Below are positions 3,980-7,159 of a stretch of 11,546 nucleotides of DNA, one piece after another. How positions within the stretch are numbered: position 1 is the stretch's first letter; every line of letters begins with the position of its first letter. The position numbers and the translations under genes were made by a program. The stretch comes from a virus (taxonomy: Duplodnaviria > Heunggongvirae > Uroviricota > Caudoviricetes): the IMG/VR virus record IMGVR_UViG_2703718868_000005; one strand, written 5' to 3'. Under the pieces are notes generated by a model that was not told the origin of the DNA, ran no database searches, and saw only the letters and a list, made by a program, of their open reading frames with translations.

Positions 3980-4037
3980 TTGCCTCCATAGTCCACATGG
4001 TGTAACACTATGTGTTATATAAAATGCAGAGGCAGGT
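3980..4037 (+). promoter_or_regulatory. Putative promoter/operator of the type II TA operon
   Basis: TTGCCT -35-like element (3980-3985), TATAAA -10-like element near 4018-4023 and an imperfect inverted repeat GTAACAC-N3-GTGTTAT (4002-4018) lie just upstream of the toxin SD GAGG. Typical site for antitoxin autoregulation. Confidence 0.35.
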
Positions 4038-4410
4038 ATGCGAATTTTCAAAAACGCCTGGTTTGAACGTTTCGCCCGAAAACATCGGATTTCCGATAAA
4101 TCGCTGCGCAAAATCGTGGAACAGGCCGATAAGGGGGATCATATCCGCAAATTTGGGTAGTGGTGTCATTAAACAAAGATTAGCCCGAAGTGGTGGCGGA
4201 AAATCAGGCGGTTACCGGACAATAATTTTTTACCGCGTTGCAGAAAAAGCCTTTTTCATCTACGCATACGCAAAGAATGAACGAGAGAATATCACTGCTA
4301 TAGAGGAAAATGCTTTTCGAAAAGCCGCTCCCCATGTCCTCAATCTTACTGATGAACAGCTGGCACAATTGATTCAACAAGGCCAGTTCACGGAGGTACC
4401 CAATGAGTAA
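4038..4410 (+). pseudogene. RelE/ParE-superfamily (HigB-2-like) toxin gene, frameshifted at a G5 run (4133-4137)
   Basis: Frame from ATG 4038 gives MRIFKNAWFERFARKHRISDKSLRKIVEQADKG, then a TAG at 4158. The rest of the toxin (IISANLGSGVIKQRLARSGGGKSGGYRTIIFYR...FFIYAYAKNERENIT) continues in the +1 frame to the stop at 4408-4410. Removing one G restores a single ORF of about 123 aa. Confidence 0.7.
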
Positions 4411-4720
4411 AAATTACCGCAGTGATGCACTTGCATCTGTACATGAAATGATGGAGTCACTCCATGATATCGGTGCAATCACAAAACAAACTATGCGCGA
4501 ATTCGATGAAACTTGTCTTCAGCCTGCGCCGGTAATGTCTCCGGAAAGGATCCGTGCACTGCGAGAACGAGAGCATCTGTCTCAACCTGTTTTTGCCAGA
4601 TACCTCAACGTCAGTAAAAACCTGATATCAGACTGGGAACGAGGAGTGAAACGCCCGGGAGGTGCAGCTCTTCGGCTTCTTTCAGTTGTCGAGAAAAACG
4701 GGATCCAGGTAATATCCTGA
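4403..4720 (+). CDS. HTH-type antitoxin (HigA-2-like) partner of the upstream toxin
   Basis: 105 aa. ATG overlaps the toxin stop (ATGAGTAA) and SD GGAGG sits 6 nt upstream. Motifs SQPVFARYLNVS...DWERG...PGGAALRLL match antitoxins paired with HigB-2-type toxins. Confidence 0.85.
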   Translation: MSKNYRSDALASVHEMMESLHDIGAITKQTMREFDETCLQPAPVMSPERIRALREREHLSQPVFARYLNVSKNLISDWERGVKRPGGAALRLLSVVEKNGIQVIS

Positions 4721-4822
4721 TATTCTAATACAACAAAACCCGCCGAAGCAGGTTAAGTGCGGGTGCGTTGAGGATGCCTGACACATCAGAGGTGGCGAGG
4801 GATTTCTCCCTCGCCAGGTCTC

Positions 4823-4978
4823 TTACTCCTCAGGTTCGTAAGCTGTGAAGACAGCGACCTCCGTCTGGCCGGTTCGGATTCGTACCTCGCAGAGGTCTTT
4901 CCTCGTTACCAGTGCCGTCACTATGACGGTTAAACAGATGACAATCAGGGCGATTAACATCGCCTTTTGCTGCTTCAT
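4823..4978 (-). CDS. hokD: Hok-family type I membrane toxin (HokD/RelF-like)
   Basis: 51 aa, MKQQKAMLIALIVICLTVIVTALVTRKDLCEVRIRTGQTEVAVFTAYEPEE, matching HokD/RelF as I recall it. SD AAGGAG upstream. An in-frame upstream ATG at 5035 gives the 70-aa ORF-track frame, at the position of mok. Confidence 0.9.
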   Translation of the reverse strand: MKQQKAMLIALIVICLTVIVTALVTRKDLCEVRIRTGQTEVAVFTAYEPEE

Positions 4979-5026
4979 AGCCTGCTTCTCCTTGCCTTTC
5001 GGCACGTAAGAGGCTAACCTACATGT

Positions 5027-5095
5027 GCAAAGCATGAAATTGGCCTCAGATTAATGTTAAGCGTCCTGCAAGACGCGTAATGTTAACTGGGGCTT
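5027..5095 (+). ncRNA. Possible Sok-like antisense RNA opposite the hok leader (position approximate)
   Basis: Inferred from hok/sok locus architecture. Weak promoter-like TTGCCT-17-TAACCT at 4992-5020 and a hairpin GCGTC-CTGCAA-GACGC at 5061-5076 on the plus strand. Exact ends not determinable from sequence alone. Confidence 0.2.
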
Positions 5096-5249
5096 TTCTC
5101 TGTCTGCCTTACGGCGGCATGCCCGAGGCAGACAGCCTCAAGCACCCGCAGCAATTCTACTTAACTCTTCTTTCCCCGCAAATCATTTTATCCCCGATGG
5201 TAATGTTCTCCCGATATGGGAATTCCCATATCAAGGTTAACTCAATCGG

Positions 5250-5801
5250 TTAAAGCTCCATTAATTTTCCGGCCAGTTCATCTCGTGGCATTACCAACCA
5301 TCCGCGCGATTTAAGCAAAGCCAGGGCTTCTTCAACCGTCACCAGCTGGCCAGGCGCATCACTTCGGATGAAGGCGGTTTTATCGTCACGGATCGCCAGG
5401 TGAAAATCGATATTCATTTTTCCCATAGCCCGCTCTTTCTCGTACTGGTTGAAGTAACTGTCTTCGAGTTTTTCGAATACTTCCCACGCCTGATCGGTTT
5501 CGAGCATTTTTGCATGACGGGCTGCTCCGCGTTCTGTCCAGAGGATGAGAGTGCGGGTTTTGGGAGAAATTTTCACCTCATTTTGCGACTCGTTTAAAAC
5601 TAGTCGCAAATTTTTGAGCTCATCACCAACAGCTTTAAAGAAGTGTTTTCCCTCAATAAATCGAGATTTATTTTCATGGTGATTCTGCTGTATACGGATT
5701 GCTTCTGTTCCGTAAAGGCGGGCGAGTAACTCAGTTGTGATTACAGGAATCTGGTTATAAGTGACAGGGGAAAGGTTTTTGACAGTAACTTGAGTCGTCA
5801 T
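5250..5801 (-). CDS. ORF6N-domain (KilA-N/antirepressor-like) phage regulatory protein
   Basis: 183 aa. N-terminal motif IPVITTELLARLYGTEAIRIQQNHHENKSRFIEGKHFF and later LILWTERGAARHAKML resemble ORF6N antirepressor domains. SD GAGGG about 8 nt upstream of the ATG. Confidence 0.75.
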   Translation of the reverse strand: MTTQVTVKNLSPVTYNQIPVITTELLARLYGTEAIRIQQNHHENKSRFIEGKHFFKAVGDELKNLRLVLNESQNEVKISPKTRTLILWTERGAARHAKMLETDQAWEVFEKLEDSYFNQYEKERAMGKMNIDFHLAIRDDKTAFIRSDAPGQLVTVEEALALLKSRGWLVMPRDELAGKLMEL

Positions 5802-6156: not shown

Positions 6157-6340
6157 CGTAAACTATCCTCAGCGCCAATCAGTCCGTTTCGCTTCAGGCA
6201 GTCCATCGCTTTATACGGTAATTTGGCTGACAGGCGAAAATCACCCTGCAGCATCAGGCTTATTCCCTTATCCCGGGCTTTCGCTCTGACCGCTGCCTCG
6301 CTACGACCAATCAGACTGCCGATACTTTCGACAGTCATCG
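6153..6340 (-). CDS. Small HTH-domain protein (SIGSLIGRSEAAVRAKARDKGISL)
   Basis: First ATG after the stop of the upstream 253-aa gene is at 6338-6340 (61 aa). The ORF-track frame begins at GTG 6488 and would overlap the upstream gene by 90 nt. Confidence 0.5.
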
Positions 6341-6397
6341 TTCCCGCGCACTGCCGGAGTATCAGAATTTCAGCCCGGCACCACGTCTTCCACCCAC

Positions 6398-7159
6398 TCA
6401 CCGCAGCTGTTCTCTGGTGGCGGTAATATCCCGGAGAATATCCCGGCACTTGTTCAGCTCCCGCAGCGCGGCGCAGACTCGCTCCCACTTCTGAACCTGA
6501 CCTTTTACCCGGCGCAGCTCGCGGTTAGCCACATGCAGCGATGGTAGAATCAGGTCATCTGCTTTCGTTTCGGTGACCGATGGCTGTAACTTCACAATGT
6601 CTTCCACGATTTCTGTTTTCATTTCTTCCTGTGTCGTCGTTTCCTGGACTGGTAACGCAACACCTGCTGGCTGAGGAAAGGCTTTACCATCGGTTTCCGC
6701 TACGGATGCAGCTTCCGGCTCTGCCGGTAAATCAGCGCCCGGTATGCAGTAACGAAATTTACCGTTCTGATTTACGCGTGCCAGGCGCCCCGTTGCTGTT
6801 ACGACCGCCAACGTGGAAGCAACCTTGCGAATGCTAACACCGAACTTATCCGCCAGTTCCTCACACGTTTTAGCCCCATCCTGACAGATAAACTCAATCA
6901 TCATGTCCGCGGTAACTTTTTGTTCGACCTCCCCGGTCAGCACATCCGGTACTTCAGACTGTGCTGGCTGCTCTTCGGTTACCCCGGATTCACCTTCACC
7001 AGCCAGAAACCAGGTGTGACCCGTTTTATCAACAACGCCATTTTTTTGGAGTTCCCACAGTTCGTTGAGAACTTCTTCACGGCTGATATCAAGCCGCGCC
7101 GCCAGTTCAACAGAATTGGCTTTACCCATCGCTTTCAGTGCATGCAATACGGTTTCCAT
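6398..7159 (-). CDS. Hypothetical phage protein with two winged-helix-like segments separated by an acidic linker
   Basis: 253 aa with strong SD GGAGGAAA upstream of the ATG. Located after the DnaC-like gene in the same operon. Candidate HTH segments [28 protein letters not shown] and [19 protein letters not shown]. Confidence 0.8.

Follow-up and report, generated by a model that had tools for sequence, protein, structure and literature searches.

A hok locus in a lambda-like prophage of Shiga-toxin-type Escherichia coli very probably retains a complete hok/mok/sok cassette

The question raised by the hok gene described here was whether it is accompanied by the RNA elements of a type I toxin–antitoxin cassette or is a remnant like hokD of E. 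coli K-12. The gene lies on the minus strand of an 11,546-nt stretch of DNA (IMG/VR record IMGVR_UViG_2703718868_000005, hereafter the window), which belongs to a lambda-like prophage of Shiga-toxin-type E. coli, and occupies its early-right (replication-to-Q) region. An earlier note made from the letters alone had described the hok leader as apparently intact, with an in-frame ATG in the mok position, and had suggested that this copy may be a functional hok/sok module. Every feature listed there was recovered in the minus-strand reading and the ORF listing, and the intact leader was borne out by an Rfam match, alignment and folding, which on sequence grounds supports an intact and probably functional module. 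We concluded that the minus-strand locus at approximately 5189–4737 is very probably a complete hok/mok/sok type I toxin–antitoxin cassette. It falls in the HokD/HokW subgroup and would be a moron of a decaying lambdoid prophage. Its elements are collected in Table 1.

Table 1. Elements of the hok/mok/sok cassette and of the neighbouring type II pair in the window
Feature	Position	Strand	Description	Differences from 933W
hok promoter	5154–5182	−	−35 TTTGCG 5182–5177 (weak), 17-nt spacer, −10 TAGAAT 5159–5154; +1 lies 7 nt downstream
Full-length hok mRNA, ~411 nt	4737–5147	−	GGGUGCUUGAGG to terminator; predicted transcript ends
tac (translational activator element)	5136–5147	−	GGGTGCTTGAGG; pairs with fbi (full-length) and ucb (trimmed)
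5′ hairpin	5100–5135	−	10-bp stem CUGUCUGCCU/AGGCAGACAG, variable loop with GGCATGCC; predicted folds	7 in the loop
ucb / anti-SD	5089–5093	−	GCCCC; pairs with mok SD region (full-length) and tac (trimmed); matches the published R1 model
mok Shine-Dalgarno	5044–5047	−	GAGG; placed by folds; same mok SD motif in R1
mok SD-to-codon-3 segment (Sok tail)				7
mok reading frame, 70 codons	4823–5035	−	In frame with hok; encodes N-terminally extended Hok
Sok-recognition loop	5026–5032	−	CUUUGCA, target hairpin of trimmed mRNA; complementary to Sok nt 1–6
dcb	5010–5014	−	GCCUC; pairs with mok SD region in trimmed mRNA; agrees with the R1 model; invariant alignment block
hok toxin gene, 51 aa	4823–4978	−	ATG 4978, SD GGAG 4991–4988	9 in the coding region; 4 amino-acid changes, all C-terminal
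3′ hairpin	4794–4815	−	GGCGAGGGA-GAAA-TCCCTCGCC, 9 bp perfect; predicted last stem-loop of processed mRNA	5
fbi (fold-back inhibitory element)	4761–4773	−	CCTCAACGCACCC; pairs with tac in MFE and centroid
Intrinsic terminator	4737–4754	−	Hairpin then T-run; terminator prediction; present in K-12 hokD, outside 933W homology
sok promoter	4992–5020	+	−35 TTGCCT 4992–4997, 17-nt spacer, −10 TAACCT 5015–5020
Sok antisense RNA, predicted 71 nt	5027–5097	+	15-nt single-stranded 5′ tail, long hairpin, UUUU tail
Sok hairpin apical loop				3
RelE-family toxin	4012–4410	+	PF06296; profile match
HTH antitoxin	4403–4720	+	MqsA-like C-terminal similarity; profile match

All elements of the Hok/Gef family, that is, the toxin, the leader, mok, a sok gene, tac/fbi and the alternative pairings, were found at the level of sequence or fold. 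The Hok protein matched PF01848 (Pfam HOK_GEF) with 82.9 bits against a cut-off of 22 (E 1e-23) and phrog_251, 'MokW-like host killing' (E 3e-33); it is identical to HokD of K-12 and shares 47 of its 51 residues with HokW. The NCBIfam Hok models scored below their curated cut-offs (48.5 vs 73), thus the name 'HokD' given by PGAP probably comes from protein identity and not from an HMM. The upstream ATG at 5035, earlier placed in the mok position, is there and is in frame with hok. The 57-nt in-frame offset between mok and hok is the same in mokC/hokC and mokW/hokW, and by this comparison an in-frame mok is not unusual. Relative to MokW, Mok carries N3C plus the C-terminal changes of Hok. The Tyr47 codon of hok is UAC followed by G (4837–4840, minus strand), which makes up the TadA editing motif UACG, while Cys30 is hard-coded; A-to-I editing of hokD mRNA that turns the equivalent Tyr into Cys has been published.

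The leader was recognized by RF01794, the Rfam sok/hok-leader family (gathering score 59), at 5147–4973 of the minus strand with 117.3 bits (E 8.4e-27) over the full model (1–157 of 157), well beyond what chance would give. This model represents the hok-mRNA strand and stops at the hok start region, so the match certifies the hok leader and the Sok target, not the Sok RNA; taking the minus-strand match for Sok itself was rejected, as the model spans the whole leader in the sense of the mRNA. The leader elements were placed by a six-way alignment of the window, hokW of 933W, hokC, hokB and hokD of K-12 and the R1-type hok of IncF plasmids. All leader blocks are common to the window, 933W hokW, hokC, hokB and R1-type hok, with no deletion of the K-12 hokD type in the window. 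The 5′-end of the hok mRNA was set by the start of RF01794 and by alignment with the 5′-ends of R1-type, hokC and hokB mRNAs, the 3′-end by the predicted terminator. Given this element placement and the exact coordinates, the transcribed leader measures 169 nt (5147 to 4979), not about 250 nt as had been estimated. Likewise, the interval proposed for the locus (4794–5249) contains the core of the cassette, but the 3′-end runs on through fbi and the terminator to 4737, and 5190–5249 belongs to the 3′ flank of the upstream gene. BLAST against the 933W locus gave 4751–5189 as the part common to both. The hok promoter region comprises 5148–5189, where the −10 box TAGAAT aligns with TAGAAT of 933W, TATAAT of hokC and TAGGAT of hokB; we infer the promoter from its position and this conservation. 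The structured repeat reported at 5100–5136 is present as an inverted repeat of CTGTCTGCC (5135–5127) and GGCAGACAG (5108–5100, both on the minus strand), but its coordinates were off by one and the predicted stem has 10 bp. The palindrome GGCATGCC also exists (5123–5116, minus strand), but it is probably incidental, lying in the most variable loop of the leader.

The same order of elements and the same mechanism (tac, ucb, mok, Sok, dcb, hok, 3′ hairpin, fbi) are known from hok/sok (parB) of plasmid R1 and IncF plasmids, which share the conserved blocks GCTTGAGGCT, AGCCCC, AGCCTCTTAC and CAAGGAGAA with the window. The R1 system differs from the prophage copies in its plasmid context, its proven PSK role and its toxin (Hok of R1 is 44% identical to HokW; Takada et al., 2021). 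By our own count the ATGs of R1-type mok and hok are 58 nt apart, against 57 nt in the window, so that R1-type mok is in another frame. The K-12 loci hokC/mokC/sokC, which is flanked by IS186, and hokB/mokB/sokB are chromosomal, and their Sok RNAs are annotated; mokC extends hokC in frame, as mok does hok in the window.

Folding of the full-length RNA (412 nt, 5147–4736) gave −179.4 kcal/mol with a z-score of −7.9, and none of the 100 shuffled sequences was as stable. Both in the MFE and in the centroid structure the molecule was closed by pairing between fbi and the first 12 nt (tac), and ucb paired with the mok SD region. In the fold of the trimmed RNA (5147–4780), tac re-paired with ucb (G1–3/C57–59, G5–U8/A53–C56), the mok SD region paired with dcb and the post-AUG mok sequence formed the 7-nt loop CUUUGCA (5032–5026). 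The predicted folds thus reproduce the closed full-length and open truncated conformations published for the R1 hok mRNA (PMC9841398). The perfect 9-bp 3′ hairpin pointed out earlier is also present, and by analogy with mutagenesis of R1 it is predicted to block 3′ exonucleases in the processed mRNA.

The tac/fbi pairing was analysed for covariation in loci collected by scanning one genome per species for a pattern built around the invariant GCCTCTTAC...CAAGGAGAA block. The scan gave 120 stretches; 107 pattern sites were far enough from a contig end for extraction, and 79 of the 107 had a Hok-like ORF; with three reference loci and the window added, 71 passed the tac and 3′-UTR filters, of which 66 were non-redundant. 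Matches in non-enterobacterial MAGs (Alistipes, Euryarchaeota and others) had no hok ORF and were discarded as chance hits. In most of the 66 loci the best partner of the 5′ 14-mer was located 44–57 nt past the hok stop, and the mean energy of the tac/fbi duplex was −20.5 kcal/mol compared with −15.1 kcal/mol for shuffled 3′-UTRs. The covarying pairs included GGGUGC/GCACCC, GGGCGCC/GGCGCCC, GGCGC/GCGCC and GAGA/UCUC, with two-sided changes at tac positions 4 (U-A in 41 loci, C-G in 23), 7 (U-A 54, C-G 6) and 12 (G-C 42, A-U 14). When cognate and swapped tac elements were compared as a control, the cognate one had the lowest energy in 49 of the 66 loci and on the diagonal of every class. The tac/fbi pair of the window is the commonest variant in this set. 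In Escherichia whittamii, Atlantibacter, Franconibacter helveticus and L074, tandem hok loci encoding identical or nearly identical Hok peptides were seen approximately 500–770 bp apart.

At the sequence level the locus also has a cis-encoded Sok gene, which has a promoter of its own and is complementary to the mok translation initiation region. Its coordinates were transferred from the annotated 71-nt sokW of 933W and from SokC, which begin 8 nt inside mokW (in the 933W GenBank record) and mokC, respectively; the predicted RNA folds with −27.6 kcal/mol (z −4.4). The putative sok promoter, including −35, spacer and −10, is 100% identical to the sokW promoter of 933W/Sp5. The 'pro-less' mutant of Sp5 constructed by Takada et al. 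(2021) replaced TAGGTTA in the mRNA sense (primers YO-421/422), which reads TAACCT(A) on the Sok strand, the hexamer assigned here as the sok −10 box. This mutation released HokW toxicity and was partly rescued by sokW in trans (Takada et al., 2021). A consensus sigma-70 scan of 4600–5400 found no promoters; this was not taken as absence, because each promoter here has one hexamer with only 3/6 matches, below the threshold, and the validated, identical sokW promoter would fail as well. While the promoter and the hairpin arms are identical, the first 17 nt of Sok (5027–5043, plus strand) differ from SokW at 7 positions, and so do three of the six positions of the Sok-recognition loop (5027–5032). 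The first 9 nt, GUUCAGCAU, are common to SokW and SokC of K-12. As far as the sequences tell, the divergent tail may confer a specificity of its own and so restrict cross-talk between the hok/sok copies of a genome. The Sok/sokT hairpin (5055–5080) of the window, as that of the 71-nt sokW, has 16–19 extra nt compared with SokC, SokB, R1 Sok and the Rfam consensus, and this extension accounts for the length of Sok against the 59 nt of SokC and 57 nt of SokB, which both lack it.

With these elements, the cassette would work as follows. The weak promoter with its −10 box TAGAAT would drive the synthesis of the approximately 411-nt hok mRNA, in which tac at the 5′-end pairs with fbi at the 3′-end and ucb sequesters the mok SD; owing to this closure and sequestration, the full-length mRNA would be neither translated nor bound by Sok. 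Slow 3′ trimming to the 9-bp hairpin would remove fbi, whereupon tac would switch to ucb and a hairpin loop would expose the mok start region. The short-lived 71-nt Sok (−10 TAACCT, start at about 5027) would bind this loop via its single-stranded 5′ tail and block the translation of mok and hence the coupled translation of hok, the duplex being marked for RNase III. When the supply of Sok stops, the stable trimmed mRNA would be translated and the membrane toxin Hok could act. We infer the transcripts, their processing, RNase III cleavage, killing and the biological role, be it prophage retention or help in lysis on induction; structural integrity is no guarantee of a phenotype.

The nearest characterized relative is mokW/hokW/sokW of the Stx2 phages 933W and VT2-Sakai (Sp5), which is 91% identical at the nucleotide level over 4751–5189 of the window and has genes of the same size (mok 213 nt, hok 156 nt, in frame). 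The 933W GenBank record annotates mokW, hokW and sokW, and hokW-sokW has been established experimentally as a type I TA system (Takada et al., 2021), thus the cassette of the window is a near-copy of an annotated and validated system and is already known in this sense. The 40 differences over 439 nt are distributed unevenly: tac, ucb, both arms of the Sok hairpin, the whole sok promoter, the SD of hok and fbi have none, while the loops, the Sok tail and the coding region vary (Table 1). Compensatory changes were found in the stem of the 5′ hairpin (5133/5102, G-C to A-U) and in the 3′ hairpin (4811/4798, A-U to G-C). Such a pattern, with fixed boxes and variable loops and tail, is the one to be expected of a functional RNA under purifying selection, and from the sequences the cassette is real and probably working. 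The two systems differ in the C-terminus of the toxin (TAYEPEE in the window, VDYESEK in HokW), in the 3′ region, where a terminator follows fbi in the window whereas the 933W homology stops before it, and in their place in the genome, which is a nin-like region in the window and the right end near tail-fibre genes in 933W.

That the locus might instead be a degenerate remnant like hokD of K-12, with the toxin gene kept and the regulatory RNA elements lost or mutated, could be suggested by RefSeq, where in the records inspected PGAP annotates only the hokD CDS at this place, with no mok, no sok ncRNA and nothing under the leader. The comparison with K-12 itself makes this barely credible. K-12 hokD (relF, in the cryptic prophage Qin) is 98% identical at the nucleotide level, but only over 4735–4992 of the window, from the hok SD to the terminator; it aligns only from AGGAGAAGCAGGCTATG on, with the end of relE standing upstream in place of the sok promoter, Sok, mok, ucb, tac and the hok promoter. 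In K-12 the end of relE lies 71 nt upstream, and hokD belongs to the relBEF transcript; relBE is absent from the window, where 155 nt of leader remain on the 5′ side of the K-12 breakpoint at 4992. Rfam, alignment and folding all show a complete leader, and the reading as a remnant or pseudogene was rejected on the full-length RF01794 match and the alignment. The statement in the earlier note that K-12 hokD lacks functional mok/sok elements was right, since homology starts only at the hok SD and both relBEF co-transcription and inactivity have been reported: the former is published, and hokA, hokC, hokD and hokE are given as inactive in a passage of a paper citing Pedersen & Gerdes (1999). An explicit statement that K-12 hokD lacks mok/sok was not found in the open-access literature, so that the alignment made here is the evidence for it; nor was relevant literature on a 'sokD' found.

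A complete cassette can still be physiologically silent, with a single chromosomal copy held in check and showing no killing, retention or lysis phenotype, like hokA, hokB and hokC tested earlier. The state of the host speaks for this, as the prophage seems to be decaying: the genes at 392–926 (hypothetical), 1839–2200 (RusA) and 6222–6401 (DNA-binding) are annotated as frameshifted or partial in a 99.9%-identical RefSeq record. We nevertheless regard silence as unlikely, because the single prophage copy of hokW-sokW is active, with effects on lysis timing and phage yield (Takada et al., 2021), and because of the evident selection on the regulatory boxes; by analogy with hokW-sokW, this STEC 'hokD' copy is likely to be active as well. 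The main role of an active cassette could be the one that hokW-sokW has in Sp5, namely that on SOS induction Sok is lost, Hok is made and lysis and phage release are accelerated, rather than post-segregational retention. This is possible though doubtful. The hok gene is co-oriented with the early-right operon (cro, replication genes, anti-repressor, hok and Q, all on the minus strand), so that induced read-through would be expected to cross the sok promoter head-on; however, the 933W cassette is placed by tail-fibre-region genes and not in the nin region, so its context differs, and a prophage with frameshifted genes may not be inducible.

The type II system next to hok, which the earlier note had distinguished from relBE, is indeed a different one. 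It consists of the RelE-family toxin and the HTH antitoxin, in toxin-first order with an 8-nt gene overlap, and is convergent with hok. The further suggestion of module swapping at a conserved prophage position did not hold, as synteny puts the two type II systems on opposite sides of hok. The Qin hokD has the same type of neighbourhood (DUF968/ydfU, dicC-like immunity) and the same orientation as the window, but relBE of K-12 is upstream of hokD and co-directional, whereas the pair in the window is downstream and on the opposite strand, filling the interval between the hokD- and ydfU-homologous blocks where K-12 has rem. On this synteny, the two are independent insertions flanking hok. The type II operon (4012–4720, plus strand) stops 16 nt short of the hok terminator, and as no plus-strand terminator was predicted through 5400, its transcript may run antisense into hok. 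That such read-through, antisense to fbi, the 3′ hairpin and hok, could modulate the folding or processing of the hok mRNA and so couple the type II to the type I system, and that the divergent Sok tail may separately make this copy orthogonal to the other hok/sok copies of its genome, is highly improbable in our estimate.

Immediately upstream of hok, on the same strand, lies an ORF6N-domain gene (5801–5250) matching the PHROG anti-repressor phrog_2379 (E 1e-77). Upstream of it are Rfam matches to C4 antisense RNA (5940–5856, minus strand, 69 bits) and isrK (6040–5966, minus strand, 51 bits, just above the gathering score of 50); the layout is similar to that of an anti-repressor control module of the P1 immI or Gifsy-1 isrK/anrP kind. 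Between the anti-repressor stop and the hok promoter there is a perfect 20-bp palindrome, GATATGGGAATTCCCATATC (5213–5232), with no T-run after it, which is unrelated to the cassette and may serve as a binding site for a protein or terminate transcription weakly.

Many STEC genomes (O157:H7, O26:H11 and others) carry a 561-bp query sequence at 100% identity; 147 records match it at 99% or more, and places covering at least 80% of it were found in 2181 of 5426 complete E. coli genomes, with up to 10 places per genome. The leader alone had matches in 4147 genomes, with nothing annotated beneath it in the five records listed, while the K-12-type relE-hokD junction occurred in 1174 of the 5426 complete genomes. 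Over its whole length the window matches, at 99.9% identity, a prophage present in a Canadian food isolate as well as in clinical STEC strains, and a recent survey found Hok enriched in prophages. Being identical across many sequenced genomes and 91% identical to the tested hokW-sokW, the cassette is ordinary, and the locus matters little as a discovery. Its significance is in what the RefSeq label 'hokD' covers, which is two things: the truncated K-12-type gene behind relBE and complete hok/mok/sok cassettes. This matters for counting functional type I TA systems or for deleting 'hokD' in STEC, where the copy carries its own predicted antitoxin RNA.
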